From Formosa sp. Hel1_33_131 (GTDB taxonomy: Bacteria; Bacteroidota; Bacteroidia; Flavobacteriales; Flavobacteriaceae), in the NCBI RefSeq assembly GCF_001735745.1, contig NZ_CP017260.1, positions 270,001 to 302,000 on the forward strand: DNA of 32,000 bases, written 5' to 3'. Shown piece by piece: positions 1,696 to 25,260 of the stretch. The position numbers and the translations under genes are program-made. Numbering within the stretch: position 1 is the stretch's first letter; each line of letters starts with the position of its first letter. The notes below the pieces were generated by a model, which worked only from the letters and a program-made list of their open reading frames with translations, searched no databases and had not been told where the DNA came from.

Positions 1696-1725
1696 TCTGT
1701 TTTTAAAAAATATTTTTAGACTCTC

Positions 1726-1757
1726 TTTGCTCTAGCGCTTTCTTTGCATTAGCTTTG
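1726..1757 (+). promoter_or_regulatory. Candidate Bacteroidota sigma-A promoter of uvrB (TTTG, 20-nt spacer, TAGCTTTG)
   Basis: TTTG at 1726-1729 and TAGCTTTG (TAnnTTTG) at 1750-1757. The -7 box ends 5 nt before the uvrB ATG (1763), implying a leaderless or near-leaderless transcript. Motif match only. Confidence 0.35.
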
Positions 1758-1762
1758 CAGCT

Positions 1763-3766: not shown

Positions 3767-3841
3767 CAATCTAACATGGTAAGCAGATATTATTTCTTGC
3801 TAAAAAACAATTTAATAATTCTTAAAAAATAATTCCTTTTC

Positions 3842-5410: not shown

Positions 5411-5728
5411 TAAATAAAAATTAAATTAACCCAAATTTATTTTATTAATAATTCTTATACATTGATCTGAATCAAGAAATTCAAATTATTTTTCATTGGT
5501 TAATTATTGATTGTAATTTAAAACAAATATACGAGTTTCATTAGCATTAAAACCTATCAATTCAAAGAAGCTAACTTTAAATTAAAAAAAAGTAAAGCGG
5601 AAATAACCTCGGCTTTTCATTTCTTTTTTAATATTTTTATAGAACTGAAGTAAAGAACTTAATTATAGGTTATGAAACATCCATAACTAAATCTTGGTAC
5701 TCAAGGGAAATGATTAAATGGATGTACC

Positions 5729-5776
5729 ATACTTGCACTGAGCCTGCCTATCGACAGACAGGCGCCGTCGAAGTAT
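5729..5776 (+). other. GC-rich imperfect 48-nt hairpin in the patatin gene leader / divergent intergenic region
   Basis: ATACTTGCACTGAGCCTGCC-TATCGACA-GACAGGCGCCGTCGAAGTAT. The two 20-nt arms pair at 15/20 positions around an 8-nt loop. It ends 28 nt before the ATG at 5804 and is far more GC-rich than its surroundings. Confidence 0.3.
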
Positions 5777-5803
5777 GACCGTTAAAAATCAATAAATACA
5801 CAC

Positions 5804-6748: not shown

Positions 6749-6765
6749 ATTGAACTTTAGATCGT

Positions 6766-7998
6766 TTATTTGTTTTCAAAAACCGAATCTTTATACCATT
6801 GTTCTTCTTTATAATCGTCTATTCTTGATTTATATTCTCGGTTTTTTATAATCAAATGGGTGCGATCTTTCTGTTTGCTTCGGTAGCCAAAAAGATGAAA
6901 CAACTGTTTGGTAATCAGACGTGCAATACGCAAGTTCACTACCATTGTATCTTTCAGTTCTGAAGCCCATTTAACGCCTGGAAGCATCACAAAGATTCGA
7001 TCCGTTTTGTAGGTTCTTAGAACTTCTGAAAGGAGTAAGAAAAAAGGGGATATTTTTCGTATCAGAAAATAACCATCACTCCCTTGAGATTGATAGAGTG
7101 GCATAAAAATAATGGCCTTTTTTAAAGCGTAAATGGGTTGTTCATTGAGTGTTGCCAAAACCTCTTTTCGTTTGATGGTTTGAAAATTTAAAAACCCTGG
7201 TTTCATAACGAATCGTTCCTTTTTTTTAACTTCTAATCGATAATACACCTCGTAAAAATGTTGATGTTCTGGAAAGTGGGTGTTCCAATGGTCGATATAG
7301 TGGTCAAAACCAACAGCATTTTTAGCGAGTGCCCCCGTAAATACAAGTGACAAATAGATGAAAATTTTATGATTCTCAACAGAACTTAGAGCGTCATGCT
7401 GACCCGCTTCAAACCCAAAAGAAACATATCCGAGTTCATTAATATAACTTAGAAGTGGTCCCTCAAGATACTCTTCAATACCTAAAATTAAAGGCACCGG
7501 ATATTGCTGCGTAAATTTTCTATTCAACAAGCTGTCATTGACCGTAATAAATGGAGGAGATGCACTTGAAGTTGTATGAAGGTCAAAAAAGTAGAAAGGG
7601 CCTTCCTCCTCTTTTAAAATGGTATTTAGTAATTGAAAAATTTCCAACTGTTGTTTTTCATCCTCATTCTCAGGGATGAGATCTCCATTTTCTAAGGCTT
7701 CTATTTTATCTTGTGACCAGAGACGATTCAAGTCTGTTTTGTGGTAACGCACCGCTCTTTCCAAGGCCCATAAATTACCGCTTATGGCAATCATCGTTCC
7801 AGAAAATTCGTTTTGCTTTGGTTGCAATTCCTTAAGAACTTGATGCAAGGCAAACAGCCCCGAAGGTTCATTTCCGTGAATACCTCCCAAAAAAACCAAA
7901 CAAGGCCCTGGATACTCCCCGTCTATTCGTCCCACAATTCGGTTCACGCTAATGGTTTGATTGAGTGCTTTGCTATGAACTTCAGGCATTATAAACAT
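6766..7998 (-). CDS. Succinylglutamate desuccinylase/aspartoacylase (AstE/AspA, M14-like zinc hydrolase) family protein with ~150-aa C-terminal extension
   Basis: 410 aa with zinc-site motifs GGIHGNEPSG and FFDLHTTS. The start overlaps the stop of the upstream gene: by 17 nt with ATG 7998, or as ATGCCTGA with the second ATG at 7989. Confidence 0.75.
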   Translation of the reverse strand: MFIMPEVHSKALNQTISVNRIVGRIDGEYPGPCLVFLGGIHGNEPSGLFALHQVLKELQPKQNEFSGTMIAISGNLWALERAVRYHKTDLNRLWSQDKIEALENGDLIPENEDEKQQLEIFQLLNTILKEEEGPFYFFDLHTTSSASPPFITVNDSLLNRKFTQQYPVPLILGIEEYLEGPLLSYINELGYVSFGFEAGQHDALSSVENHKIFIYLSLVFTGALAKNAVGFDHYIDHWNTHFPEHQHFYEVYYRLEVKKKERFVMKPGFLNFQTIKRKEVLATLNEQPIYALKKAIIFMPLYQSQGSDGYFLIRKISPFFLLLSEVLRTYKTDRIFVMLPGVKWASELKDTMVVNLRIARLITKQLFHLFGYRSKQKDRTHLIIKNREYKSRIDDYKEEQWYKDSVFENK

Positions 7999-9853
7999 GG
8001 ATAAGGTCTTTGAGTGTTAAAATTCCAACCAGTTGAGTTTCTTGTAATACGGGCAAACACCCTATTTTATGTTTTTTCATGAGGGCAATGGCTTTGTTTA
8101 AAGGAGTAGATGTTTGTGCAGTAAATACATCGGTAATCATAATTTCTCGTGCACTGATTGAATTGTTAGCATCCTGTACCTGATCCCAAAATTGTTTTAG
8201 ATGCTGCCATGTAATTAAGCCGACCAATGTTCCGTCATTGTTTACAACTGGTAAATGATGAATCGTATTCCACTTCATATAATTGAGTGTCAACAATCCT
8301 AAATCTGAGGTTTTAGCCGTTATAAGTGTTGAGGTCATAAGATGACCAACTTTTGTTGCTGTAGAGTTGAAAAATTTGATACTTTGTAAATTTGGCCATT
8401 CACTCACTTTGTCATAAGATTCCTGATTGGTATGTAAGGTCGAAGTAAGTGCTATTAAGGCATCATCTGGTTTTAATTGCTTTTTCAGATAACGATAATT
8501 TGTTACCATCCACTGCGACCCTGTCGATTTTAAAAGCCGATCTCTAATCACGTCTAGATATTTATCGATATCATCGTTATCAATTTTCATGCGTTCCAAT
8601 CCTATTTTGGAAATGGGCAGCAATACTTCTAATACCAGTTGATCGAGTGGAATTAATTTCCCTCTCCAGTTCATAATAGATTCAGTGCCTGTCCTTGCAG
8701 CACGAATAAAATTGGATTTCACATCTTCAAAATCCAATGTTCTAGGGATATCATCAAATTCAGTCGGTCGGCCTTTCATAAGTCCCACCCAAAACGCAAA
8801 ATTAGCCATTTCGTCTGTGGCGGTTGGACCTGATGGAATGTACCTGTTCTCGATACGAACATGAGGTTTCCCATTTCCTACTCCATAGCAAGGACGGTTC
8901 CATCTATAAATGGTTCCATTGTGCAAGTTAAGTGCTGTTAGCTTTGGGATTTTCCCAGCTTTCAATTCGTCAAAAGAACTGCTCTTAATTTCCTTTGTTA
9001 GCAAGGTTCTAAATTTAGATATTTCGTGTTTATAGAAATCTACGATGGTTCCTGTAAACCAACTGTTCCCAAAAGTGACTCTAGATTGTTGTTCCGTCTG
9101 AGCCAAGGAGACTCTTCGGGTGTCAATACTTTGTTGGAACAATGCAATGCGGGTTTCACTCCAAAGTTCTTTTCCAAGAAGTAAGGGCGAATTCACACAA
9201 GCTCCTAATACAGGCCCAGCGATTGTTTGTGCCCAATTATAGCTCGAGGCAAAATCATCAGGAGCTATTTGTAGATGCATTTGAAAACTGGTGTTGCAAG
9301 CTTCAAACATTACCGAATTGTGCATAATTGGGAGGTCGTCAACGCCCGCAAAATTCATTCGAAAATTTTCACCTTTAGCTTTTTTGAGTACCTCATTCAA
9401 AGCATAATAGCGATCGAAGGGTGTCATAAATTCAAGATCCAACTCATGTTTTGAAATGCTTGGCAAAATCCCTGTCAGTAGGATTTTAGTGTTGTTGTTA
9501 TTAGCAGCGGTTTTTGCTTTTTCCAAAAGGGACTTTAACTGATTTTCTACTTTTTTGAAAGCATCTGTTTTAAGTTCTATAGGGTCCAAATTTATTTCTA
9601 AATTAAAACGTGCTAATTCCGTAGTGAAATGCGAATCATTAATTGCTTCAAGCACTTCCAACGCATTTTTGGCAGGACGCCAATATTCATTGACCAAACA
9701 GAATTCTTGTTCGGCTCCAATACGGACAATATCGTCTTCGATCATCTTCTTCTCAAACATATATTCAAGACTTTTAAGGTCTTCCATAAGGTGGCGAAGG
9801 AACTCTATCCTCGCTTGATGATCTGATTTTGTATTTACTTTCTGCTCTCCCAT
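7982..9853 (-). CDS. Glutamate-cysteine ligase family 2 (carboxylate-amine ligase)-like protein fused to a C-terminal CBS-domain pair
   Basis: 623 aa. The N-terminal ~450 aa carry a GCS2-type GAEQEFCLVN motif and overall pattern. The last ~130 aa hold two CBS motifs (HHLPVVNNDGTLVGLIT ; KIGCLPVLQETQLVGILTLKDLI). Confidence 0.7.
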   Translation of the reverse strand: MGEQKVNTKSDHQARIEFLRHLMEDLKSLEYMFEKKMIEDDIVRIGAEQEFCLVNEYWRPAKNALEVLEAINDSHFTTELARFNLEINLDPIELKTDAFKKVENQLKSLLEKAKTAANNNNTKILLTGILPSISKHELDLEFMTPFDRYYALNEVLKKAKGENFRMNFAGVDDLPIMHNSVMFEACNTSFQMHLQIAPDDFASSYNWAQTIAGPVLGACVNSPLLLGKELWSETRIALFQQSIDTRRVSLAQTEQQSRVTFGNSWFTGTIVDFYKHEISKFRTLLTKEIKSSSFDELKAGKIPKLTALNLHNGTIYRWNRPCYGVGNGKPHVRIENRYIPSGPTATDEMANFAFWVGLMKGRPTEFDDIPRTLDFEDVKSNFIRAARTGTESIMNWRGKLIPLDQLVLEVLLPISKIGLERMKIDNDDIDKYLDVIRDRLLKSTGSQWMVTNYRYLKKQLKPDDALIALTSTLHTNQESYDKVSEWPNLQSIKFFNSTATKVGHLMTSTLITAKTSDLGLLTLNYMKWNTIHHLPVVNNDGTLVGLITWQHLKQFWDQVQDANNSISAREIMITDVFTAQTSTPLNKAIALMKKHKIGCLPVLQETQLVGILTLKDLIHVYNA

Positions 9854-9938
9854 ACAAAGAAGTTTTAAATGGTTTTATTTAGGTTCGATAGATTTTTTAA
9901 TTGCACAATCTGTATCCGTATCATAAATCAAAAGTTCT

Positions 9939-10752: not shown

Positions 10753-11943
10753 TTAAGCTAAAACAGCTTGTACTTTGTCAGCAGCTTCTTGAAATTCAAC
10801 AGCACTTTGAACATCCAGTCCGGAGTTGTCAATTAATTTTTTGGCGATATCCGCATTGGTTCCTTGTAAGCGTACAATGATTGGCACATTGATAGTTCCC
10901 ATGTTTTTATAAGCGTCAATCACTCCTTGAGCCACACGGTCACAACGCACAATTCCTCCAAAAATATTAATCAAAATGGCTTTTACTTCTGGATCTTTTA
11001 AGATAATCTGAAAAGCGGCTTCTACACGTGCAGCATCTGCCGTACCACCAACATCTAAAAAGTTAGCTGGCTCACCTCCTGCTTGTTTGATTAAATCCAT
11101 CGTCGCCATTGCCAAACCTGCACCGTTTACCATACAGCCAACGTTGCCTTCTAAATCTACATAATTAAGACCTAAAGCACCTGCTTCAACTTCAATAGGA
11201 TTTTCTTCGCGAATGTCTCTTAATTCTAAATAATCTTTATGTCTGAATAAAGCATTGTCGTCAATGGTTACTTTGGCATCGACTGCTAATATTTTATTAT
11301 CACTTGTTTTTAATACTGGGTTGATTTCAAATAACGATGCATCCGATTTGTCATAAGCCGTATATAAAGCTGTTACAAATTTAGTCATGTCCTTAAATGC
11401 AGCCCCTGATAAACCAAGGTTGAAAGCTACACGACGCGCTTGGAATGGTAACATTCCAGTTGCAGGATCAATTTCTTCTGTAAAAATTAAATGTGGTGTT
11501 TCTTCAGCAACGGTTTCGATATCCATTCCACCTTCCGTAGAATACATAATCATATTTCTTCCTGTCGTTCGGTTCAAAAGAACTGAGACATAAAATTCAC
11601 TCGTTTCCGTCTCACCAGGATAATATACATCTTCAGCTACCAATACTTGGTGTACTTTTTTGCCTTCGGCAGAGGTTTGAGGCGTCACTAATTGCATGCC
11701 GATAATTTGATCTGCAATCGATTCTACTTCACCTAGATTTTTAGCAAGTTTAACCCCACCACCTTTACCACGACCACCTGCGTGTACTTGGGCTTTTAGG
11801 ACGTGCCAGCCTGTACCAGTTTCTTCGGTCAGTTTTTTGGCAGCAGCAACCGCTTCTTGAGGCGTATTTACGACGATTCCCTTTTGGATTTTTACGCCAA
11901 AAGTGCTTAATATTTCTTTTCCTTGGTATTCGTGTAAGTTCAT
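10753..11943 (-). CDS. sucC: Succinate-CoA ligase (ADP-forming) beta subunit
   Basis: 396 aa with MNLHEYQGKEIL.. N-terminus, ATP-grasp region and C-terminal CoA-ligase domain (GGIVRCD, RLQGTN). Confidence 0.95.
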   Translation of the reverse strand: MNLHEYQGKEILSTFGVKIQKGIVVNTPQEAVAAAKKLTEETGTGWHVLKAQVHAGGRGKGGGVKLAKNLGEVESIADQIIGMQLVTPQTSAEGKKVHQVLVAEDVYYPGETETSEFYVSVLLNRTTGRNMIMYSTEGGMDIETVAEETPHLIFTEEIDPATGMLPFQARRVAFNLGLSGAAFKDMTKFVTALYTAYDKSDASLFEINPVLKTSDNKILAVDAKVTIDDNALFRHKDYLELRDIREENPIEVEAGALGLNYVDLEGNVGCMVNGAGLAMATMDLIKQAGGEPANFLDVGGTADAARVEAAFQIILKDPEVKAILINIFGGIVRCDRVAQGVIDAYKNMGTINVPIIVRLQGTNADIAKKLIDNSGLDVQSAVEFQEAADKVQAVLA

Positions 11944-14424: not shown

Positions 14425-15630
14425 CTATTCGCTGCCGTCAACATACGCCTGGAGGTATGAAAATGCCGGCGTAAGTTGTCTGTTTTTAGTCATTCGAGAC
14501 CGTTCTAAAACCCCATAGGCATCCTTATTAAAAAAGCATGGGATGATGTCTTTTACAAAAATTTCTCCAAATCCTTCACTGGCATCTTTTGGCAATTCAC
14601 AGGGTAAATTATCTACTGCCATGACGGCAATCGCATTGGTATTTCTAAAATCGACTTCCGTTTCTGTTTGCGGATCATAGCCATAAATGGGACTTTCAAT
14701 GGTAGAGGGTCGGATGGTACAGGCCACAGGCCCATCGATATCACAACTGATGTCTGCCACAACTTTTAATTTAAAGGATTCTGCTTTGGCTTGATCCCGT
14801 GTGAAAAATGCAGGAGCTCCTTTTCCGTAAAAATGACCAGCTACAAATAGATCGGCTACGGATGTAAAGCGATCAAAGGTAGAGCGGTATGCTTCTGGGT
14901 GTTTAAATAAATCGGACTTCCCTAGATGCTGCCCATCTATACGTTCGCAATAGTCCAATACATCTAAAAGTACATAGACCGCTTCTGTAAAATCTTTATT
15001 TAAGAAATCGTCAACCGACACTTTTTTAATATTTAGATGGTCTAAAATTTCTTTAGCCCCCTGCCCTACACGTCCCGTTCCAGTCAAAATAATTTTAATA
15101 TTAGGAAGTGTGATTTGATCTAATTCTGTATTTAATGCCTGACGACCACTGAGTGTTGTCGCTTTTGGTAATTCAAATATAGTTTGTTTTAATCCTAAAG
15201 TTCGCATGCCATTATAAGCGCCTACAACCCCTGCATAATAGCCAAATCCAATCAGTCGGTGCTTGTTTTTATTAATCAGAGTTTCATGGTCATAAAGGGT
15301 GATGTTTTTATCTAAAATCGCGCGCAGCAACTCTCGATTGTAAGGTTGTTTTTTGATGGTATGACTGAAAAAAAAATAGCTTTTGTTTGGGATTAAGGCA
15401 TCGATCGGGACTTCTTTAACGCCTATCAATACATCTGCCTCACTGACATCTTTAACGACCTCTAAACCTACTTTGGTGTACTCTGCATCTGAAAAAATAC
15501 GAATGGGTGAAGTTTCAACCACTAACTTTGCAGATGGAAAGTCTGAAAGTAGTTTTTGACAGGATGTTGGGTCTAAAACTACACGTCTGTCTGGGGGCGA
15601 TTTTCGTTCTTGAATGATGGCAAATTTCAT
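14425..15630 (-). CDS. Lysine-ketoglutarate reductase / saccharopine dehydrogenase-like (alanine dehydrogenase/PNT family) NAD(P) oxidoreductase
   Basis: I place the start at MKFAIIQERK (ATG at 15630), giving 401 aa. Motifs: VKEVP...YFFFSHTIKKQPYNRELL (LKR-type) and the Rossmann GTGRVGQGA. The 65-codon extension in the ORF track overlaps the ssrA promoter and gene and is rejected. Confidence 0.7.
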   Translation of the reverse strand: MKFAIIQERKSPPDRRVVLDPTSCQKLLSDFPSAKLVVETSPIRIFSDAEYTKVGLEVVKDVSEADVLIGVKEVPIDALIPNKSYFFFSHTIKKQPYNRELLRAILDKNITLYDHETLINKNKHRLIGFGYYAGVVGAYNGMRTLGLKQTIFELPKATTLSGRQALNTELDQITLPNIKIILTGTGRVGQGAKEILDHLNIKKVSVDDFLNKDFTEAVYVLLDVLDYCERIDGQHLGKSDLFKHPEAYRSTFDRFTSVADLFVAGHFYGKGAPAFFTRDQAKAESFKLKVVADISCDIDGPVACTIRPSTIESPIYGYDPQTETEVDFRNTNAIAVMAVDNLPCELPKDASEGFGEIFVKDIIPCFFNKDAYGVLERSRMTKNRQLTPAFSYLQAYVDGSE

Positions 15631-15675
15631 AGGCAGATAAAAAATATTAAAAGATTTTTCACGAAAGTAAAAGGA

Positions 15676-15709
15676 TTTGAGCGGTTGCACAAGTTTTTTT
15701 GTAACTTTG
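15676..15709 (+). promoter_or_regulatory. Candidate ssrA promoter (TTTG, 22-nt spacer, TAACTTTG)
   Basis: TTTG at 15676-15679 and TAACTTTG at 15702-15709, about 28 nt upstream of the mature tmRNA 5' end (a leader that RNase P would remove). The spacer is slightly long and this is a motif match only. Confidence 0.3.
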
Positions 15710-15737
15710 CCTCCCCTCTTTGGGGGATTATAGTAAT

Positions 15738-16129
15738 GGGGTCGACTGGTATTGACAGCGAGATCTACTAAACTGTAAGCACGTCGTGTGATGATATTGA
15801 TACACGTAAAAGGCCATATCACCATTTAAACGGCGAGAATAACTACGCTTTAGCTGCTTAATCCGAATTATAGTAGGATGAGCCTAGTCCCGCAAGGCGG
15901 GAAAGCTAAATGTCTCCTGAAAGCCTTGGTTCACGGCGTTCAATTTTGAGACATCGTAAATGTCAACCTAGATTCTCTAAGGCTTTGGTAGGGATTCGAA
16001 ATTAAAAAAGCTAAGGAATAAGTGGGCCGTTTTTAGTCAGTTTATTTCCGACAATTAAATAAAAACTAAACGTGTAGAAAGCTTTTTATTAGCTTGTTTG
16101 GACCCGAGTTCGATTCTCGGCGACTCCAC
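15738..16129 (+). ncRNA. ssrA: tmRNA (transfer-messenger RNA, SsrA)
   Basis: The 5' end GGGGTCGACTGGTATTGACAGCGAG is typical of Bacteroidota tmRNA. The tag reading frame is at 15832-15861: GGC GAG AAT AAC TAC GCT TTA GCT GCT TAA = GENNYALAA*. The 3' end is GTAGAAAGC...GGACCCGAGTTCGATTCTCGGCGACTCCAC, with T-arm CCGAG/TTCGATT/CTCGG. The acceptor strand CGACTCC pairs with the 5' GGGGTCG. CCA is not fully encoded (ACT). Confidence 0.93.
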
Positions 16130-16290
16130 TTTGAAGCACAGCAAAGCTGTGAATAAACCCTTAAAAAAGCCCTGCAAATTTATTTGTAAGGGCTTTTGTA
16201 GGTTTAGACACCTGGGCTGAAAGCACAGTTTGCTGTATTTCCTAAAAGGGAGCTAAGAGAGAAACCGAAGGTTAATCTAGGCGACTCCAC
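16124..16290. repeat. 167-bp direct repeat, copy A (starts in the last 6 nt of ssrA, ends in a second copy of the tmRNA 3' end)
   Basis: Identical to 20703-20869 at 165/167 positions with no indels (differences at 16261 g/a and 16279 a/c). Confidence 0.95.
16164..16198 (+). terminator. Likely ssrA terminator hairpin (inside repeat copy A)
   Basis: AAAAAAGCCCT-(15-nt loop)-AGGGCTTTT. The AGCCCT/AGGGCT stem (16168-16173 / 16189-16194) is extended by the A/T runs. The U-tail is short. Confidence 0.45.
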
Positions 16291-16364
16291 TTTTTATTCC
16301 CAAGAATAATTTTTTATACTTGGGAGTAATTTTTTCTAAAAACAGCTAAATCAGACCTAAAAAA

Positions 16365-16391
16365 GTTCGACTTCACTCCCCTCTGCTCCAC
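16365..16391 (+). repeat. tmRNA-3'-end-like 27-mer, variant copy 1 (GTTCGA-N15-CTCCAC)
   Basis: GTTCGACTTCACTCCCCTCTGCTCCAC. It shares GTTCGA and CTCCAC with the genuine end (16108-16129) but has a 15-nt rather than 10-nt middle. Confidence 0.7.
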
Positions 16392-16573
16392 TTTTTATTC
16401 TCAAGAATAATTTTTTATTTTTGGTAATAATTATTTGATTATTTCAAGAAAATTAGTTCTTATTAAACTTTAAATTAAATCAACAATATCAAATTGTTAT
16501 AAAAATAGCACATAATTACAAAAAAATACCACCCTTGTAGAGTGGTATTTTAATAATTTAACTAGAGTTTCTT

Positions 16574-19500
16574 TTAAAACGCCCGTACAGCACGTACAGC
16601 TTTTGAATTATTAGTTGAGTGGTTTGCTCCAGGGCTATTAGAAGAAGTTCCAAAACCATTTGCCATATTAACAAAATATGCGTTACCGTAACCAGGTTGA
16701 GTGGAACTCCAATAATCATTACCGCCCCACATTGGAGAAATATTTGCTTTAGCTAAATAAATTAATTCTAACTCTCTAATAGTGGGTAAGCGCCAATCCA
16801 TAAATTTAGCGCCGTTAGTATCGTGTCTTGTGATATCATTTAAAAGATTATCAATTGGATACCATGTAGAGACACCTTGGTCTTGCATTGCGACCACCAA
16901 ACCGTGTTTTCCACCATCACGGACTTCAATTACAAACCCACCTAACTCTGCATAGAAAGTGTTGACACTATATACAGAATCTGAACCACTTGATGGAGTC
17001 GTCCATGTAGGAACTCCTGTTCCCGAGGATGTTAATACCTGCCCCGATGAACCTGCATTATTATTTGGCATAAGTGCACCATTGAATTTAATATTGCCTG
17101 CAACATCTAACTTTTCGGTTGGTGAATTAGTTCCTATTCCAACTTTACCATCATTCTTTATTATCATTTTAGTGTCTGATAATCCATAATCATTGGCGTT
17201 AGTATAGCTATTTAGTATAAAACGTAAATCCGTTCTACCCCAATTACTAATTCCTGATGCAACAATAGCCGTTTTATTAATACCACCTGCTCTCAACATA
17301 AGGTGAGCCTCATCACCCTCACCATACGCATTAATTAATGCTTTAGCATCACCTAAAGCAGCCTTTACATGTAAAAGTTGTGCAGGACTAACTGTCCCAA
17401 TACCAACATTTGTACCATCATCATAAATTGAGCTATTTCCTAGTACTGTTGAAGACCCATCGAATTTGGCTATCATATTACCAGTTCCTGAACCGCTAAC
17501 CCCTGCCGAAGAAGTTGTCCACGATAGTGCTCCAGAACCATCCGTTGTTAAAACCTGTCCGCTTGTACCGTCAGTGTTTGGAATTGTAATCTCTCCTGCA
17601 GTTATTGATCCACTTGTTTTTACATTCGTAACACTTGTATTACCCAATTGAACTGTATTATCGCCAGAGCCAATAGCACCTTTACCTATTACAGTTTCAT
17701 TATTTGCATTAGGTGAACTCACATTTGCATCAAGTCCAATCAAAGTGTTGTTTGTACCTGTTGTTATCGATTCTCCTGCTCTTTGTCCTAAACCAGTATT
17801 ATTGCTTCCTGTAGAAACGTTAAGCATTGTTTGATTTCCTATTGATGTATTAGCAATTCCTGTAGTTAATGAAAACATATTTTCGGCACCCAAAGCTGTA
17901 TTTCCACTACCTGTTGATAATGCTCTCATATTGTAGTATCCAATTGCAGTATTGTTATCAAACCCAGTTCCTGAGTAAGATTCGAGAGCTCTCGATCCTA
18001 TTGCAGTATTTCGCTTTCCTGTTCCCGAACCCATCGAAGATCCGATGGCTAAATTGTTATCGCCATCACCAGATCCTGTGCCAAAATATAAGCCATCAAC
18101 AGTAAGACTAGTCGTTATTGTTGTGTTGTCAGGCAATCCAACGGTGGTTGTAGAATCAGATGTAGAAACTTCAATTTCATTTACTGTTCCATTAATTGTT
18201 TCTGCCGAAGAAGTTGTCCACGAAAGTGTTCCAGAACCATCTGTTGTTAAAACTTGATTGGCATTACCAGTCGTATTCGGATAGGTGTTTCCACTAGCAA
18301 TTAATGTTGGAGTGGTTACCGTTCCTGTAAAGGTTGGTGAAGCAATATTAGCTTTTAAATCTATTGCCGTATTTTGGGTGGTTTGCTCGGCGGTAATCGC
18401 AGACAAAGAACTTGTTGTAGTACCACTCACAGCACGAATAGCACGAACAGCACTTGAAGAGTGCTTAGCGTTATCATTGACCTGACCTCCATTATTGAAA
18501 TTCTGTTTCCATGCGCGATTATTAGCAACTTCCGAAGAAGTCCAGTATACGGTAGCTGAAAATGGTGTAAATCCAGAGATTGCATCTAACGTTGGTTTTT
18601 TTATATACATCTCATTTAATTCGTCTTTTGAAGGAAAAAACCAGTCGGTATAACCTCCACCATTATATGCCCTTGCTAAACCTGCAGCATAACTCGTTTC
18701 CGTTTCACCTTGGGCGTTTATAATAGCCGTTGTATTGACTGCTCCAGTTCCTATCGCGGTACCTGTTGCTCCAGTTGTGATGTGAGTGCCATTGTACCAT
18801 CGAATCCCTGTACTCTGGTCTTCTATAGCACTAACTAAACCCTTAGTGTTATCTGTTGGGTCTATCCAAAATACAAATCCGCCCCCTACAAAATCACCAA
18901 TAGATAATGGCTGAGCTACTTGACCATTATTAATAATATCTGATAGAGCAGCAATTTCACTTGTATCTGCATCTGCACCTGCTGGACCGATTTGACCTTG
19001 AGCCCCTGTTGGACCTACCTGACCTACTGGACCTGAAACTGTTGAGTCCGCACCAGCTGGACCTTGAGCACCTTGATTTCCTGTTGGGCCGATTGGACCC
19101 GCTAGGCCTTGGGCTCCTTGATTTCCTTGAGCTCCTGCTGGACCGATTGGACCTGCCTGACCTACTGGACCTTGAACACCTTGAGCTCCTGCTGGACCGA
19201 TTGGACCTTGAGCGCCATCAGCACCATCTGCACCTGCTGGGCCTGGAGCACCTTGATTTCCTTGAGCTCCTGTTGGACCTATTGGACCTGCCTGACCTAC
19301 TGGACCTACTGGACCTACTGGACCTAGAACTGTTGAATCCGCGCCAACTGGACCTTGAACACCTTGATTTCCTTGAGCTCCTGTTGGACCTATTGGACCC
19401 TGAGCACCAGGAGCTCCTGCAGCACCTATACTTCCTGTTGGACCTATTGGACCCTGAGTACCAGTCTCGCCTTGTATTCCTTGGTCGCCTTGTACACCTT

Positions 19501-19843
19501 GAGCACCATCAACTCCGTCTTGACCATCAACACCTGCTGGTCCTGGAGCACCTTGATTTCCTTGAGGACCTGCTGGACCGGCTACACCATCAATTTTTGC
19601 CCAAGCCGTTCCGTCATAAAAATAAAACCCTGATACTTCATCCGTTTGATAAATCATCAACCCTGAAGCTGGTGATACAATTGCATCTCGCTGCGTCTGT
19701 GTGAGTCTTGGAATTAAAATTCCACCTGTAGTGGATTCAATCTCTAATGCCGAAGAGGCATCAGGGTTATTTGTGTTGATACCTACTTGTGCGTAACCCA
19801 ATGCTGTGAACAGCATAAGTGCTATTAATGTGATTTTTTTCAT
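16574..19843 (-). CDS. 1089-aa secreted mosaic fibre/adhesin: N-terminal VGINT..PR.T module, collagen-like triple-helix repeats, DUF1566 (Lcl C-terminal-like) domain, tail-fibre-like and YadA-head-like repeats, second DUF1566 domain
   Basis: Signal peptide MKKITLIALMLFTALGYAQ. 66 G-X-Y triplets span aa 86-291. DUF1566-like blocks are GGFVFWID...YTDWFFPSKDELNEMY...YWTSSE...AVRAIRAV and GGFVIEV..GLVVA...FMDWRLPTIRELELIY..YWSST...AVRAVRAF. The motif SGQVLTtdGSG.lSWTT occurs 4 times, NTAIG/NTALG/NTSIG/NTGLG/NTLIG repeats are present, and VGIGT.sP...L.V motifs match tail-fibre-like proteins. Confidence 0.88.
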   Translation of the reverse strand: MKKITLIALMLFTALGYAQVGINTNNPDASSALEIESTTGGILIPRLTQTQRDAIVSPASGLMIYQTDEVSGFYFYDGTAWAKIDGVAGPAGPQGNQGAPGPAGVDGQDGVDGAQGVQGDQGIQGETGTQGPIGPTGSIGAAGAPGAQGPIGPTGAQGNQGVQGPVGADSTVLGPVGPVGPVGQAGPIGPTGAQGNQGAPGPAGADGADGAQGPIGPAGAQGVQGPVGQAGPIGPAGAQGNQGAQGLAGPIGPTGNQGAQGPAGADSTVSGPVGQVGPTGAQGQIGPAGADADTSEIAALSDIINNGQVAQPLSIGDFVGGGFVFWIDPTDNTKGLVSAIEDQSTGIRWYNGTHITTGATGTAIGTGAVNTTAIINAQGETETSYAAGLARAYNGGGYTDWFFPSKDELNEMYIKKPTLDAISGFTPFSATVYWTSSEVANNRAWKQNFNNGGQVNDNAKHSSSAVRAIRAVSGTTTSSLSAITAEQTTQNTAIDLKANIASPTFTGTVTTPTLIASGNTYPNTTGNANQVLTTDGSGTLSWTTSSAETINGTVNEIEVSTSDSTTTVGLPDNTTITTSLTVDGLYFGTGSGDGDNNLAIGSSMGSGTGKRNTAIGSRALESYSGTGFDNNTAIGYYNMRALSTGSGNTALGAENMFSLTTGIANTSIGNQTMLNVSTGSNNTGLGQRAGESITTGTNNTLIGLDANVSSPNANNETVIGKGAIGSGDNTVQLGNTSVTNVKTSGSITAGEITIPNTDGTSGQVLTTDGSGALSWTTSSAGVSGSGTGNMIAKFDGSSTVLGNSSIYDDGTNVGIGTVSPAQLLHVKAALGDAKALINAYGEGDEAHLMLRAGGINKTAIVASGISNWGRTDLRFILNSYTNANDYGLSDTKMIIKNDGKVGIGTNSPTEKLDVAGNIKFNGALMPNNNAGSSGQVLTSSGTGVPTWTTPSSGSDSVYSVNTFYAELGGFVIEVRDGGKHGLVVAMQDQGVSTWYPIDNLLNDITRHDTNGAKFMDWRLPTIRELELIYLAKANISPMWGGNDYWSSTQPGYGNAYFVNMANGFGTSSNSPGANHSTNNSKAVRAVRAF
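18971..19588 (-). repeat. Collagen-like G-X-Y coding tract (28 + 31 + 7 triplets separated by GAD-STV[L/S] breaks) with internal DNA repeats
   Basis: Strict 9-nt/3-aa periodicity. Plus-strand segments such as GCACCTTGATTTCCTTGAGCTCCTG.TGGACC.ATTGGACCTGCCTGACCTACTGGACC recur. The tract is clearly GC-richer than the flanks. Confidence 0.9.
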
Positions 19844-19844
19844 C

Positions 19845-20543
19845 TTATTGTTTTATGATTTTAAATGTTGAAATTTGGTTTTGTGTGTTTTGTAAATTCA
19901 GTAAATAAACACCTGTTGGTAAGTCTGTAACATCCAGTTCTAAGGCATTTGATTCTAATATTTTTTGACCTGCTGTATTGAACAATGTTGAGTGTTGCGC
20001 AAAATTAGAAACTATAATTATTTTATCGGTTGTTGGATTTGGGTAAACACGTACGATATCATTTAGTGTTTCTGTTTTTATGGTGAGTGTTGCTGATGAA
20101 GCACTTGCAGTAATTTTTTTAAATCCAACAAGTTCTGTGAAATCATAACTCAATATGTTGTTTGTATCATCAATGTTTGGAGCAACATTGTTCCAAACAT
20201 CGTTGGCATCCAATACTTCTAGAACTAATTCTGCTTCGTCAATACCATTGAGTTCAGAATCTAAATAACGAAAAGAAAGTATTCCTGAATAATCAGTTAG
20301 TTCATTTGATAATTCATAAACTCTTTCAATACTAGAGTTATCTCCAACAACTATTGGGGTAGTCGATCGCGCAATAGAATTAGGCCCTGTTATGGTATGA
20401 GATACACTAGGGGATAATTCTAATCCGTCTACTGAAACAGAACTATTGGAGTTAACACTAACAAAACTTCCTGATTCAATGCTGAGAGTTTGGCTAAAAC
20501 AAAAGGAAGTTGCTAGCAATAAAGCTATTAGTAATTTGTGCAT
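19845..20543 (-). CDS. Small secreted protein with T9SS type A C-terminal sorting domain, first gene of the fibre operon
   Basis: 232 aa with signal peptide MHKLLIALLLATSFCFSQ and C-terminus VRVYPNPTTDKIII...LPTGVYLLNLQN...FKIIKQ. Its stop (19845-19847) lies 1 nt from the ATG of the 1089-aa gene (19843). Confidence 0.8.
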   Translation of the reverse strand: MHKLLIALLLATSFCFSQTLSIESGSFVSVNSNSSVSVDGLELSPSVSHTITGPNSIARSTTPIVVGDNSSIERVYELSNELTDYSGILSFRYLDSELNGIDEAELVLEVLDANDVWNNVAPNIDDTNNILSYDFTELVGFKKITASASSATLTIKTETLNDIVRVYPNPTTDKIIIVSNFAQHSTLFNTAGQKILESNALELDVTDLPTGVYLLNLQNTQNQISTFKIIKQ

Positions 20544-20681
20544 GGTTAAACGTTAAATTGGTAATGCAATTTAGTTTAAAAATTATAAACATTTAATACA
20601 TATTTGATATATTATAATAAAAGTAATGATAATTATATTTTATTTGAAAGAATTGAACCTCTTTAAATCCTCAACAAAATA

Positions 20682-20708
20682 GTTCGATTTTACTCCCTTT
20701 AGCTCCAC
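20682..20708 (+). repeat. tmRNA-3'-end-like 27-mer, variant copy 2
   Basis: GTTCGATTTTACTCCCTTTAGCTCCAC, directly abutting repeat copy B. Confidence 0.7.
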
Positions 20709-20869
20709 TTTGAAGCACAGCAAAGCTGTGAATAAACCCTTAAAAAAGCCCTGCAAATTTATTTGTAAGGGCTTTTGTAGGTTTAGACACCTGGGCTGAA
20801 AGCACAGTTTGCTGTATTTCCTAAAAGGGAGCTAAGAGAAAAACCGAAGGTTAATCTCGGCGACTCCAC
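20703..20869. repeat. 167-bp direct repeat, copy B (ends in an exact 15-nt copy of the tmRNA 3' end, TCTCGGCGACTCCAC)
   Basis: 165/167 identical to 16124-16290. 20855-20869 equals 16115-16129 exactly. Confidence 0.95.
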
Positions 20870-20946
20870 AAATTATTGACTATCTTGAACTTTCAAAAAG
20901 ATATGTAATAACCCATTTATTAATTTAAAATTAAGACTTTTAAGTA

Positions 20947-21225
20947 ATGAAATATCCAAATTTATTTAAAGCATTTAATACGCATATAGATTTAGACATT
21001 GATGCATATCTAGATTTAGAAGACCGTTTAGTCCACAAAAAAATAGGTAAAAAAGATTTTTTATTTAAACAAGGGGAAGTGGTTAATTACTTACCATTTA
21101 TTAACGATGGACTAATGATAAATAATATAATAGATAAGGATGGAGAAGAACATGTAATCCAAATTCGGGGGACTGGATTATGGCTTGGTGATTTGTACAG
21201 CTTTTTTTCAGGTGCAACAACATGA
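20947..21225 (+). pseudogene. Crp/Fnr-family regulator fragment: N-terminal cNMP-binding half only
   Basis: 92 codons. KKDFLFKQGEVVNYLPFINDGLMINNIIDKDGEEHVIQIRGTGLWLGDLYSFFSG matches the cNMP-binding beta-roll. The HTH half is missing. The frame ends where an opposing gene fragment begins (~21215-21225). Confidence 0.6.
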
Positions 21226-21380
21226 GAAATGTCAAAAACTGTTAAATCATTATTGATGGCTTCTTCCGTAAAGTTTTTAACAAAAGGAGTTCCTGGAATA
21301 TTAGAAAATTGGGCATGGAGGGGGTTGCTAACAATGAAAATTGCTAGAAAAACGAGACTTCTGATTGTATTTTTAATCAT
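21222..21380 (-). pseudogene. 5' fragment (~53 codons) of a secreted protein gene, truncated against the Crp-like fragment
   Basis: MIKNTIRSLVFLAIFIVSNPLHAQ (signal peptide) is followed by FSNIPGTPFVKNFTEEAINNDLTVFDISH. The rest of the 97-codon ORF (21087-21221) is only the antisense of the Crp-like fragment. Confidence 0.45.
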
Positions 21381-21558
21381 TAATGATAAATAAGTAACTT
21401 TTAAAACGAAACCAAATATACAATTTATGACGAAACCGTATTATTCAACATGATAATTTATTCATAGTTAAGAGGTAAACCTGAGCGCACATAATATAAA
21501 ATTACATTTGACAAGAAATTAAAATAAATTGATTAATTTTGCAACTTACTTTTGTAAA

Positions 21559-21888
21559 ATGTATTTAAACAATCAACTTGCAAAAAATATTGCTGCGTTA
21601 TTGCTTTTATTAGCTTTAATACTTCCGACTGCAATTCAGTTTAGCCATATGATTGAAGGGCATGAAGGTGATACTTGTAATAACCTGAGTACTCACATAC
21701 ATAAATCTGAAAAGAATTGCGAAATATGTGCTTTCCATATTACATCTTTCAACTATGATATTGCTAAATATCCTGATTTACTTTTAGCACAAATTTCTGT
21801 TAAGGTCAGTACAACCTATACCCCATTACAATTATACTTCTCTACCTTAACAAATAATCAGTTACGCGGCCCCCCAGTATTTTCTTAA
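21559..21888 (+). CDS. Small membrane-anchored His/Cys-rich protein, first gene of the TonB-receptor operon
   Basis: I prefer ATG 21559 (109 aa) over the TTG at 21529. It has one N-terminal TM helix (IAALLLLLALILPTAI), then HMIEGHEGDTC..THIH...CEICAFH and a C-terminal RGPP. It lies 39 nt upstream of the receptor gene. Confidence 0.55.
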   Translation: MYLNNQLAKNIAALLLLLALILPTAIQFSHMIEGHEGDTCNNLSTHIHKSEKNCEICAFHITSFNYDIAKYPDLLLAQISVKVSTTYTPLQLYFSTLTNNQLRGPPVFS

Positions 21889-21927
21889 TATACGAACAAA
21901 CACGTTTAATATTAATTAAGAATTTAT

Positions 21928-24327
21928 ATGCGCAACTATGCATTATTGGTACTGCTATTTAGCAGTATTACATCGTTGTCACAAAATTGTGACAATTCAC
22001 TTTCAGGTATAGTAACAGATATTCACGATGGCCAATTGCTCATCGGAGTCACCCTTATTATTGCAGACACTGAACAAACTGTTCAGACGGGTTTAGATGG
22101 AGAGTTTTCTTTTTCAAACCTTTGTAATAACACCTATTTCATACAGGTTTCACACCCCTATTGTTTGACAAAAGGATTTACTGTTAGAATTTCTGGGAAT
22201 ACCAAAAAGTCATTTAAGTTAGAGCATCATATTGAAGAACTCAATCAAATTACGATTGAAGGGAAAGCCTACAGTGACAAATCCAAAACACTTCTCGAGA
22301 ATACTATTAACAAAGAAGAGTTGGAGCGTTTTAATAGTGGCTCTCTTGGTGATGCTCTAAATAGTTTGAGTGGTGTATCGTCACTAAATACAGGGAGCAC
22401 GGTCGTAAAACCAATGATTAATGGACTTCACAGCAGTCGTGTGGTCATCGTTAATAATGGGGTGCGGATGGAAGACCAAGAATGGGGGGCAGAACACGCA
22501 CCTAATATTGACATAAATTCCGTCAGTAACCTTACCGTCATAAAAGGAGCTGGTGCACTTCAATACAGTGGAGATGCTGTAGGGGGCGTAATTATTGCTG
22601 AAGCTTCTAAAGTTCCGGTAAAAGACAGTTTGTATGGCAAAACTTTGATGACTGCAACTAGTAATGGGCGTGGCGCCTCGTTGAGCTCAAAATTGACTAA
22701 AAGTTATCAAAATGGATGGTATGCAACCCTGCAAGGATCCTTAAAACGCTTTGGAGATTTTGAAGCTCCTGGCTATGTATTGAGCAATACAGGGATTTTT
22801 GAGAGAAGTGCTTCTTTACAAGTAGGTTTTAACCGTTTTGACTATGGTATTGAGGGGTATTATTCAATCTTTAAAAATGAGATTGGAATTTTAGCGGCCT
22901 CACATTTGGGCGGTGCTCAAGATCAAATTAGAGCCATCGACAGCGATGTACCACTAATTATAAACGATTTCACATATACGATCAATGCACCTAGGCAAGA
23001 TGTCACCCATCATTTGGCAACTATAAAAGGATTTAAACGGTTTGAAAACTTTGGAAAACTTAGCATCCAATACGATTTTCAAAGAAACAATCGGCTTGAG
23101 TTTGACATCAGGCGTGGGGATGACAAAAAGAAGGCTGCATCAGATTTACAATTAGATACGCATACCGTTTTGCTAGATCTAGATGCACCTTTGTCTGATA
23201 AAATTGTATTAAAAACAGGGCTCATGGCGAAGTATCAAAAAAACGTTGCAAATCCCGAAACGGGTGTGAGACGGTTGATCCCTGATTTTCAGATGTATGA
23301 CTTAGGAATGTACTTTGTAATGGACTACCAATTAAATGACCAATGGCTTCTGGAAGCCGGGGGCCGTTTTGATTACTCCTTTATGGATGTTTTTAAATTT
23401 TACAGAACCTCCTTTTGGGAATTACGTAATTATGACCAGCTATTTCCTGAAATTGTGCTTGAAGAATTGGAGAATCAAATTTTAACCAATCCGCAACTAA
23501 ATTTTAATAACGGTTCAGCTACCTTAGGAGCCAACTATACATTTGGTGAGGATTATAAATTGTTTTTCAACTATTCCATGGCATCTCGAGCGCCAAATTC
23601 CTCAGAACTTTTTAGTGAAGGCTTGCACCATTCTGCTTCTCGAATCGAACTGGGAGATTTAAGCTTCAATTCTGAAATAGCACATAAAGTTGCATTGACA
23701 TTTCAAAAGGAGAACGATCTATTTAGTTTTAATGTAAACCCTTATATTAATACCATTTCTGACTTTATAGTGAATGAACCTACAGAAATTCAGCAGACGT
23801 TGAGAGGCAACTTTCAGGTGTGGGAATACCGCCAAACGGATGCTCAATTGTTAGGTGTAGATGTGGATGCCTCCTATGCTTTTGCTAAAAACGTTCGTTT
23901 AAACAGTCAATTCTCTTTAGTCAAAGGCTATGACCAAACTTTAGACGCGCCACTAATCGGAATGCCGCCTGTAAACATTAGCAACGAAATTGTATATCAA
24001 AATCCTGAATTCAATAACATTCGTCTGTCTTTACAAAGCGCATATCATTTTAAACAAAATGACTATCCCAATACCAATTTTGAAGTGTTCATACCAGAAA
24101 CCGAAACATATAAATTGGTGGATGTAAGCTCTACACCAGACGCGTATCATTTGCTTAATTTTAATTCGAGTATCGATATTAATCTCAACCAAAAATCAAA
24201 ATTAACGGTAGGACTTAGAATTACAAACGTATTGAACACTTCGTATCGAAACTACCTGAACCGTTTGCGCTATTATGCAGATGATTTGGGCAGAAACTTT
24301 TTATTTAATCTTAAAATCAATTATTAA
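21928..24327 (+). CDS. TonB-dependent outer-membrane receptor with N-terminal carboxypeptidase-regulatory-like domain
   Basis: 799 aa with a signal peptide, the CarbopepD_reg-like LSGIVTDIHDGQLLIGVTLII...GEFSFSNL, a plug (VVKPMINGLHSSRVVIVNNGVRMEDQEWGAEHAP) and a long beta-barrel ending in an aromatic residue (..FNLKINY). Confidence 0.9.
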   Translation: MRNYALLVLLFSSITSLSQNCDNSLSGIVTDIHDGQLLIGVTLIIADTEQTVQTGLDGEFSFSNLCNNTYFIQVSHPYCLTKGFTVRISGNTKKSFKLEHHIEELNQITIEGKAYSDKSKTLLENTINKEELERFNSGSLGDALNSLSGVSSLNTGSTVVKPMINGLHSSRVVIVNNGVRMEDQEWGAEHAPNIDINSVSNLTVIKGAGALQYSGDAVGGVIIAEASKVPVKDSLYGKTLMTATSNGRGASLSSKLTKSYQNGWYATLQGSLKRFGDFEAPGYVLSNTGIFERSASLQVGFNRFDYGIEGYYSIFKNEIGILAASHLGGAQDQIRAIDSDVPLIINDFTYTINAPRQDVTHHLATIKGFKRFENFGKLSIQYDFQRNNRLEFDIRRGDDKKKAASDLQLDTHTVLLDLDAPLSDKIVLKTGLMAKYQKNVANPETGVRRLIPDFQMYDLGMYFVMDYQLNDQWLLEAGGRFDYSFMDVFKFYRTSFWELRNYDQLFPEIVLEELENQILTNPQLNFNNGSATLGANYTFGEDYKLFFNYSMASRAPNSSELFSEGLHHSASRIELGDLSFNSEIAHKVALTFQKENDLFSFNVNPYINTISDFIVNEPTEIQQTLRGNFQVWEYRQTDAQLLGVDVDASYAFAKNVRLNSQFSLVKGYDQTLDAPLIGMPPVNISNEIVYQNPEFNNIRLSLQSAYHFKQNDYPNTNFEVFIPETETYKLVDVSSTPDAYHLLNFNSSIDINLNQKSKLTVGLRITNVLNTSYRNYLNRLRYYADDLGRNFLFNLKINY

Positions 24328-24362
24328 TTTAACTATTAAAAAACAACAAAAACAACAAAAAC

Positions 24363-24911
24363 ATGAAAAACATGAAATTTTTAACTACAGCATTATTTAC
24401 AAGCATATTATTTATCGGATGTTCAAAAGACGACGCCCCACAACCTGTAAACGAAGAAGAAGTGATCACCACACTAACCGTAACTCTTGTGCCAAATGAC
24501 GGCAGTACAGCGATCACCTTACAGACTCGTGACTTGGATGGTGATGGACCTAACGAACCCGTTATTACAACTGGTAATTTAGCTACCGGCGTCACCTATA
24601 GTGGTAGCATAGTTCTACTTAACGAAACTGAAAATCCAGCTGAAAACATCACGGATGAAGTTGAAGAAGAAAGTGTAGAACACCAATTTTTCTATACACC
24701 AACAGCTGGTTTGGATGTTACAACTAACGCTGAAAACCTTGATTCAGAAGGCAATAAACTAGGAACCGAGTTTACCTTGGTCGCTGGAGCCGTGAGTTCT
24801 GGAACGTTAACCTTTACGTTGCGTCATGAACCTACTAAGCCAAATACAGGTCTTAACGATGCGGATGGAGAAACAGATATTTCTGCAACGTTTGATGTAT
24901 CAGTACAATAA
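24363..24911 (+). CDS. Lipoprotein of unknown function, partner of the TonB-dependent receptor
   Basis: 182 aa with lipobox LFIGC-SKDD. The mature part is acidic with a repeated beta-rich pattern (EEVITTLTVTL ; GTLTFTLRHEP). It lies 35 nt downstream of the receptor gene. Confidence 0.7.
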   Translation: MKNMKFLTTALFTSILFIGCSKDDAPQPVNEEEVITTLTVTLVPNDGSTAITLQTRDLDGDGPNEPVITTGNLATGVTYSGSIVLLNETENPAENITDEVEEESVEHQFFYTPTAGLDVTTNAENLDSEGNKLGTEFTLVAGAVSSGTLTFTLRHEPTKPNTGLNDADGETDISATFDVSVQ

Positions 24912-25016
24912 ATTTGAATTAGTCACAATTCAATTAATTTGGTTCGAAAAAAAACTTATGGTTATTAAAAAATGAGATTAAATATACCCGTAAGTTAACT
25001 TTACGCAGGCCAAATT

Positions 25017-25055
25017 AAAACCCACAACTCTAAAAGTTGTGGGTTTATTGTTTTT
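25017..25055 (+). terminator. Rho-independent terminator after the receptor operon
   Basis: AAAA-CCCACAAC-TCTAAAA-GTTGTGGG-TTTATTGTTTTT (stem 25021-25028 / 25036-25043). Confidence 0.65.
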
Positions 25056-25074
25056 ATAAATCCTTTCCAAAACA

Positions 25075-25101
25075 GTTCGACTTTAGGCCCTTTGCCTCCA
25101 C
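25075..25101 (+). repeat. tmRNA-3'-end-like 27-mer, variant copy 3
   Basis: GTTCGACTTTAGGCCCTTTGCCTCCAC, preceded by AAAACA as in the other variant copies. Confidence 0.7.
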
Positions 25102-25260
25102 GATTAAGCGCAGTGCGACTGCGAATTAAAATTCAAAAAACTTACCAAGCTTGCTTGTGTAAGTTTTTTTGTTTTAAGGACAAAGCTCTTTTAGACCTTA
25201 TTGGACTCGTTTGTAACGAGTGCAAAATCAACCCTAAAAATTGGTTTCATCTATTGTAAG
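25096..25260. repeat. Diverged third copy of the 167-bp repeat family (hairpin, terminator-like hairpin, hairpin)
   Basis: Same order of elements after CTCCAC as in copies A and B: the small hairpin CGCAGT-GCG-ACTGCG (25109-25123), then A6-CTTAC..GTAAG-T7 (25135-25170), TTTAGAC, the hairpin ACTCGTT-TGT-AACGAGT (25205-25221) and CCTAAAA. Alignment done by eye. Confidence 0.45.

Follow-up and report, generated by a model that had tools for sequence, protein, structure and literature searches.

The cis-mobilizable elements (CIMEs) of the ICESt1/CIME system of Streptococcus thermophilus are flanked by attachment (att) sites, lack integrase and transfer genes and occur in tandem at one att site, from which an integrase acting in trans can excise them one at a time or as composites. 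Among the Bacteroidota, the Bacteroides elements NBU1 and NBU2 are tyrosine-integrase elements located in tRNA 3' ends, with a core of 13-14 bp. The Riemerella 10K island is likewise a tyrosine-integrase element, located in the 3' end of tRNA-Arg with a 53-bp core (PMC6764341). The ssrA islands of Dehalococcoides are arranged in tandem behind ssrA, the gene for transfer-messenger RNA (tmRNA), with insertion in the T-loop and 20-bp repeats of the 3' end of the gene; a conserved motif is situated beside each repeat, and integrase-less members have been read as cis-mobilizable elements that move by accretion (PMC3146451). These ssrA-specific genomic islands represent the closest described system to the locus analyzed here, which is located in a 32,000-nucleotide stretch of the genome of Formosa sp. 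Hel1_33_131 (NZ_CP017260.1, positions 270,001 to 302,000; hereafter the window). In this window a two-gene cassette downstream of the tmRNA gene is bracketed by two copies of a 167-bp repeat, and the cassette is present in some strains and absent from others. We consider it probable that the locus is an array formed by accretion at the tmRNA 3' end, and that the cassette is at present lost, and perhaps regained, through recombination between the two repeat copies.

The repeat pair and the interval between its copies

Positions 16124-16290 (copy A) and 20703-20869 (copy B) of the window align without gaps at an offset of 4579 bp and are identical at 165 of 167 positions, the two mismatches being located at 16261 (G/A) and 16279 (A/C). 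Both copies open with CTCCAC and close with GGCGACTCCAC, and a match of this length and quality within 32 kb is far beyond chance. The first six nucleotides of copy A are the last six of the tmRNA gene, while copy B opens with the terminal nucleotides of a degenerate tmRNA/tRNA-like 3' end (20665-20708). The initial annotation had described the near-perfect pair and its offset, the genuine tmRNA end at the start of copy A, the degenerate motif ending at the start of copy B, and an interval of 4412 bp holding two genes and short att-like pieces only. These observations were reproduced by realignment, by the gene boundaries of ARAGORN and Rfam, and by open reading frame (ORF) and Pfam analysis, and the reading of the short debris as att-like also holds. 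The repeats are therefore real, yet their membership in a wider family, termed element X below, and the extension of the array to position 25175 had been missed.

Strain variation at the tmRNA locus

Contigs of the same species were recovered from many independent marine metagenome assemblies by exact-protein look-ups of the flanking genes. An occupied site is present on a 492-kb contig (L007), in which tmRNA, X, 4412 bp and a second X follow one another at a spacing of exactly 4579 bp; the two X copies of this contig are 100% identical to each other and to copy B of the window. Empty sites, i.e., a tmRNA gene followed by one 167-bp copy, represent the majority state and were observed in L008-L014, L016, L119, L136, L137 and L106, which include contigs of 433 kb (L009) and 205 kb (L010). 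In L008-L014 and L016 the single copy runs straight into the sequence found 3' of copy B in L007. The locus thus displays strain variation with a clean empty site, as in an island array, and the comparison proposed in the initial annotation returned the unit of exactly 4579 bp as present in some assemblies and absent from others. The case for the polymorphism rests on the closed genome, on very long contigs, and on the agreement among more than 15 contigs that stem from several studies.

Both states were encountered on each of two right-hand backgrounds, designated D and M5 (Table 1). On the D background the site is occupied in L007 and empty in L008-type strains, while on the M5 background it is occupied in the window, L003/L139, L133-L135, L140 and L141, and empty in L136 (10.3 kb), L137 (9.1 kb) and L106. 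Furthermore, the 6.2-kb left flank of occupied L007 differs from that of empty L012/L013 by 6 substitutions, as compared to 91 differences between the occupied window and occupied L007. Since both states occur on two backgrounds and may be separated by as few as 6 substitutions per 6.2 kb, gain or loss of the cassette must be recent or recurrent, and the state of the cassette is independent of strain background. A recent event had already been proposed from the window, and the close left flanks and the identical repeats of L007 agree with that proposal. Copy B is identical to the single copy of empty-site strains, and every single or double copy in the other strains examined matches copy B, indicating that the two substitutions of copy A are private to the window genome.

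Many contigs of metagenome-assembled genomes (MAGs) from this clade stop exactly at or inside the tmRNA gene (L017, L018, L034 and approximately 15 further loci), which suggests that strain heterogeneity at the tmRNA site systematically breaks assemblies.

Element X

The 167-bp repeats are two copies of X, a cargo-free element of ~161 bp in which 146 conserved nucleotides are followed by a duplicate of the final 15 nt of the host gene (15-17 nt across hosts). The corresponding 15-nt core of the tmRNA gene, TCTCGGCGACTCCAC, is found at 16115 and 20855 and, with one mismatch, at 16276. When metagenome contigs of the Joint Genome Institute (JGI) were scanned for CTCCAC followed by the initial 22 nt of X, 26 loci were returned, mostly from other organisms; as this query contained CTCCAC, the confinement of X to Ala-accepting genes follows in part from the search design. 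X-like elements of 159-161 bp are located directly 3' of tmRNA genes that have only 77-82% identity to the tmRNA gene of the window, and X-like elements also directly follow tRNA-Ala genes in several marine Flavobacteriaceae. Each X is bracketed by an exact duplication of 15-17 nt of the 3' end of its own host gene, starting inside the T-loop (for example, AATCTCCCCGGCTCCAC, ACTCCCATCTTCTCCAC and AATCCCTTCTTCTCCAC), while the 146-nt body exhibits a mean conservation of 90% across species and host genes. The element has two hairpins, one small and the other terminator-like, as well as an internal inverted repeat of 13 bp. It is absent behind the tmRNA gene of the nearest sister species, where other terminators directly follow the gene. 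Judged by its anatomy, X behaves as a cargo-free inserted element with putative attL and attR ends, and not as a native spacer or a known RNA.

Other identities of X were considered and set aside. A known RNA was rejected on the basis of Rfam searches, which at gathering scores and even at E<=10 returned no match to X (tmRNA being the sole match in these searches, with the remainder far below gathering scores), and of RNAalifold, which predicted a fold with almost no covariation. Derivation from a miniature inverted-repeat transposable element or an insertion sequence was rejected because the 13-bp inverted repeat is internal (X positions 4-16 and 101-113) and not terminal, and because the flanking duplication is always the 3' end of the gene itself, 15-17 nt from the T-loop. 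With regard to a deletion derivative of a larger element, no split X-left/X-right pair enclosing cargo was present among the loci examined, the search having returned just two truncated X-left copies (L100 and L113). A tRNA-like acceptor-stem mimic at the right end was discarded upon inspection of the alignment, where only 3-4 of 7 pairs are possible. As for a viral origin, IMG/VR scans with the X hairpin and the T motif (described below) gave one chance hit in a high-GC phage coding region, and BLAST searches with the T motif T3 plus X against phage and plasmid records gave no match. The literature consulted yielded no description of X or T motif sequences and nothing specific on tmRNA/tRNA-Ala elements in Bacteroidota.

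Organization of the array

At the sequence level the locus reads as a tandem series of putative att-bounded units in the order tmRNA / X / S2-T2 / S3-(1089 aa, 232 aa)-T3 / X / M5...T6 / D (Table 1). The island is located directly 3' of the tmRNA gene and on the same strand, the gene ending at 16129 and X starting at 16130. Each unit begins right after CTCCAC and is closed by a (pseudo) tRNA/tmRNA 3' end. Direct repeats of the tmRNA 3' end delimit the units, T2, T3 and T6 being degenerate versions that end in CTCCAC. The T motif comprises 44 nt, i.e., AAATCCTCnnCAAAAyAGTTCGAyTTyAC followed by a variable pseudo T-stem/acceptor and CTCCAC; in related loci it is always found on the tmRNA strand. 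Every T motif is followed by a terminator module, which is an S-type hairpin, X or D.

Table 1. Coordinates of the tmRNA gene, the repeat copies and the array units in the window.
Feature	Position	Strand	Evidence or remarks
tmRNA gene (ssrA)	15738..16129	+	ARAGORN; Rfam RF00023, 131 bits, gives 15738-16131
tmRNA att core (last 15 nt of the gene)	16115-16129		TCTCGGCGACTCCAC
Repeat copy A (CTCCAC + element X)	16124..16290	+	X itself 16130-16290
Hairpins of copy A	16137-16151; 16163-16197		small; terminator-like
Pseudo-3'-end core of copy A	16276-16290		TCTAGGCGACTCCAC
Cargo-free unit S2-T2	16291..16391	+	S2 (16291-16347), terminator module; T2, 16348-16391
S3, left end of the cargo unit, and spacer to the stop of the 1089-aa gene	16392..16573	+	S-type terminator module, 88% to S2
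Cargo gene 1, secreted 1089-aa collagen-repeat / Lcl_C (DUF1566) protein	16574..19843	-	Pfam
Cargo gene 2, 232-aa protein with type IX secretion system (T9SS) C-terminal sorting domain (Por_Secre_tail)	19845..20543	-	Pfam
T3, closing the cargo unit	20665..20708	+	conserved arm and tRNA-Ala-like pseudo-core CCCTT/TAGCTCC/AC
Repeat copy B (CTCCAC + element X)	20703..20869	+	core 20855-20869, TCTCGGCGACTCCAC
M5, further strain-variable unit	20870..25101	+	
Truncated cNMP (cyclic nucleotide)-binding gene in M5	20947-21225		
Stump in M5, N-terminal part of a 959-aa gene	21223-21380	-	
TonB-dependent receptor in M5	21928-24327		
Other ORFs in M5			109/119-aa ORF, 182-aa ORF
T6, closing T motif of M5	25058-25101	+	
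Module D, terminator-like	25102..25175	+	

Haplotype breakpoints are found exactly after CTCCAC, at 20869/20870 between the window and L007 and at 25101/25102 between the T6/D and T1/D arrangements, and D is identical at 72 of 74 positions to the sequence directly 3' of X in L007/L008-type strains. S2 is 96% identical to the sequence directly 3' of the L031 tmRNA gene, with a similar sequence behind that of the related species L028, while the S3 region is ~90% conserved beside a T motif and an Lcl_C gene in L124-L126. Repeated units are also seen in L113, another species, which has the arrangement X-cargo-T / X-cargo-T / X. In relatives with homologues of the 232-aa protein, a collagen-like PTL_trimer gene is always the next gene and 1-3 T motifs are present per 16.7 kb. 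In a further species (L125), the linkage of the 232-aa gene, its T motif and X is kept, with ~80% identity through the whole of X.

Modules of different types also appear combined with one another. In L124-L126, a hybrid module (~7689-7879, minus strand) follows the T motif, its left half being D-like (GATGAAGCG...CCAAGCTTGCTTG terminator) and its right half corresponding to X-right, indicating that terminator modules recombine with each other. In the sister species L031, an 8.6-kb unit without integrase (849-9509) is situated between tmRNA/S2 and T/S2', and encodes a UvrD-like helicase, DarT and an ADP-ribosylglycohydrolase, i.e., a DarTG-like defence set.

Within M5, the cNMP-binding (Crp-like) gene is cut after 92 codons at 21223 and joined to the N-terminal stump of the 959-aa gene, an intact version of which is found in L001/L002; many independent contigs contain this deletion junction. 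In related strains, tmRNA/X/D is directly followed by a 42-aa ORF, an MFS transporter, GH30 and GH16, corresponding to a laminarin-type polysaccharide utilization locus. A second strain-variable spot at 6752-9901 holds a 410-aa AstE/AspA-like gene and a 623-aa CBS-domain gene in the window, and in L007-L016 a 337-aa DUF1016/YhcG gene instead, which is frameshifted in L009, L010 and L016; PADLOC and PHROG scans of this spot were blank. Upstream of the array, the longest ORF (466 aa) of an AlaDh/PNT-like gene (14425-15825, minus strand) overlaps the tmRNA gene by 88 bp. Several pipelines call the gene in this overlapping form; the conserved protein begins at an internal Met (401 aa), and the gene is so called in L008 and L014.

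Cargo of the cassette

The 1089-aa protein possesses two Lcl_C domains, tail-fibre-like matches in PHROGs and a PTL_trimer annotation. The 232-aa protein shows 100% identity to FORMB_02750 (Formosa sp. Hel1_33_131) and belongs to a family with dozens of alleles at 85-95% identity. As the cargo is a pair of secreted/surface proteins, the cassette polymorphism is expected to alter the cell surface. PADLOC and PHROGs scans of the neighbouring variable genes for defence-system cargo returned no match.

Between the cassettes of the window and L007, 77 substitutions are concentrated in a 570-bp patch (19694-20261), with 6 differences elsewhere. The N-terminal end of the 1089-aa gene, together with two thirds of the 232-aa gene on its C-terminal side, is covered by the patch, which looks like the product of an exchange of alleles among paralogous cassettes. 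Several metagenome contigs are broken within the patch, and L133-L135 start at 20180-20330.

Integrases at the same core

Islands that encode an integrase and employ the same core were found only in other species, and the Formosa island itself holds none. In L121, L110 and L107, a 442-aa tyrosine integrase (Phage_int_SAM_5 and Phage_integrase) starts ~200 bp from attR, in the context ...TTGCATTGTTTTAG / TCTCCCCGGCTCCAC / X with a tmRNA-type core of 14-16 nt. A tblastn search with the L121 integrase against all loci gathered matched L107, L110 and L121 only. Homologues of this protein constitute a large Flavobacteriaceae family. Among the best 120 matches to this integrase, none bears the name Formosa sp. 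Hel1_33_131; the analysis covered 32 kb of the source genome, and a resident integrase or further X copies are possible elsewhere in it. Integrase homologues are likewise found beside a local tmRNA-type core in Polaribacter cellanae (L131), whose 21-kb locus contains no tRNA/tmRNA gene, and in L132, where the integrase is on the contig of the L050 tmRNA gene, ~10.6 kb downstream of the tmRNA 3' end according to the record coordinates. As integrase islands use the same site, the 3' core of 14-17 nt represents a true att core in Flavobacteriaceae.

The core in L132 is followed by a different mini-element of ~150 bp that is again core-bounded, a pattern also seen in L047 and L049. These mini-inserts of ~125-150 bp, located directly 3' of tmRNA genes in L047 (+145), L049 (+124) and L132 (reverse complement, 11545-11724), are unrelated to X, and each ends in a second copy of the local tmRNA 3' core. 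Cargo-free, core-flanked elements are thus not limited to the X family, and mini-elements flanked by the 14-17-nt core are common in Flavobacteriaceae.

Formation of the array and turnover of the cassette

The array would have been built by repeated integration of the tyrosine-integrase type into the T-loop/3'-terminal core of the tmRNA gene, each incoming unit supplying its own terminator module for tmRNA. Units without an integrase would depend on an enzyme provided in trans or on homologous recombination. Recurrent recombination between the identical X copies, whether RecA-type or at the cores, would then be the most economical cause of the present polymorphism: it would delete one X and 4412 bp together in the form of a circle, and such a circle may in turn enter a resident X by Campbell-type or core-specific insertion. 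Recurrent loss requires fewer events than independent gain on two backgrounds, and loss is therefore ranked first, if not by much.

Several points weigh against this model. Neither the circle nor the excision product is evidenced, each circle junction also exists in the integrated form, and contigs of the two are indistinguishable. Gain and loss would give the same sequences, so that contigs cannot separate the two directions. By Pfam, no integrase is encoded by the ORFs of the window or by any T-bounded unit examined (L031, L022, L100, L109 and L113). X shows nearly no covariation (RNAalifold) and has no demonstrated activity. Contigs assembled from short reads could in principle jump over a collapsed 167-bp repeat, yet contigs of 205-492 kb (L007, L009 and L010) and the closed genome cover both states. 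Finally, the pseudo-cores of T2, T3 and T6 mismatch the tmRNA gene of the window, indicating that the cargo unit did not arise by textbook integration into this gene; its probable place of formation is another Ala-type gene or genome, from which it would have reached the locus via recombination at CTCCAC or within X.

Recent gain, the main idea of the initial annotation, offers an alternative that we regard as possible but rather less probable than the accretion and X-X recombination described above. Here, a 4579-bp circle (X, S2-T2, the cassette and T3) would spread between strains and enter a resident X by Campbell-type recombination or, through an integrase acting in trans, at the CTCCAC/core. 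The presence/absence and flank data also fit this direction, the empty site is the majority state, the T3/X linkage is kept in another species (L125), and composite excision of neighbouring units is known for ssrA islands and CIMEs. However, the unit has no transfer or integration gene, the IMG/VR and BLAST searches found no phage, plasmid or viral contig with X or T3, and the cassette would have had to be gained independently on each of the two right-hand backgrounds, whereas deletion uses repeats that are already present.

It is less likely still that the two states are old alleles which are shuffled by ordinary homologous replacement via long flanks after DNA uptake, with no X-X or site-specific events at present. 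The flanks are indeed mosaic, with substitutions clustered in blocks, the cassette holds the imported 570-bp patch, and in L136 the right flank is of the window type while the left one is divergent. This explanation, however, accounts for the spread of the state and not for its origin, and leaves unexplained both an indel bounded exactly by two identical element copies and the other breakpoints exactly after CTCCAC.

A functional or regulatory RNA, in which X would be a 3' trailer of Ala-accepting RNA genes and its duplication selected for function, appears very improbable. Such a role would agree with the 90% mean column identity across species and host genes, the stable predicted fold and the terminator-like hairpin 34 nt behind the gene; however, the predicted pairs are almost all invariant, the one pair with repeated double changes tracks the host-gene subtype, Rfam is blank even at the relaxed threshold, the element is missing behind the tmRNA gene of the closest sister species, and it is bracketed by target duplications. 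An assembly artefact, one outcome by which the initial annotation could have been overturned, found no support and can be dismissed with near certainty, as a closed isolate genome and at least eight independent assemblies from different samples and studies share the repeat structure.

Significance and comparison with known systems

The locus provides a base-pair-level view of cell-surface variation in an abundant, bloom-associated Formosa population, in which a collagen-like, tail-fibre-like protein and its T9SS-secreted partner switch as one unit and nearby polysaccharide-uptake genes are also strain-variable. The tmRNA 3' end as a break point of MAG contigs is relevant to binning and pangenome work, while the X and T motifs represent sequence handles for finding such arrays and for testing trans mobilization of integrase-less cassettes in Bacteroidota.

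The array resembles integrons in being one-directional and attached to one platform, with promoter-poor cargo units and an end motif like a recombination site. This is a resemblance only: no intI, attI or attC was found (no integrase in the window and no attC-type match in Rfam), and the anchor is the 3' end of tmRNA or tRNA-Ala. As a tentative extension, it may be envisaged that marine Flavobacteriaceae own an active, integron-like gene-capture platform at the 3' end of genes for Ala-accepting RNAs (tmRNA and tRNA-Ala), where integrase-less, T-ended cassettes and cargo-free modules (X of ~161 bp and S-T of ~100 bp) would be inserted, shuffled and excised at CTCCAC cores by a recombinase encoded elsewhere, X and T then being its sites and not fossils.

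Similar to NBU1/NBU2 and the Riemerella island, the Formosa units are Bacteroidota elements at a tRNA-type 3' end with a short duplicated core, yet those elements encode their own integrase while the cassette and X do not. Like CIMEs, the cassette is att-flanked and has no integration or transfer genes; it differs from them in that no partner integrative and conjugative or integrative and mobilizable element was identified in the genome, and in that X occurs behind two gene types with a matching core in each case. The Dehalococcoides ssrA islands share the tandem, strain-variable units directly downstream of a single tmRNA gene. Those islands typically carry a serine-recombinase (CcrB-like) module and measure 10-30 kb, whereas the Formosa units are devoid of a recombinase, some being as short as 100-160 bp, and the integrase islands related to the Formosa array encode a tyrosine integrase. 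Furthermore, the long Formosa repeat (167 bp) is situated downstream of the gene end, while the Dehalococcoides repeat is within the gene. The distinguishing features of the Formosa type are its two conserved families of cargo-free modules, X and S-T, and the fact that X is common to tmRNA and tRNA-Ala genes, with a core matching each.

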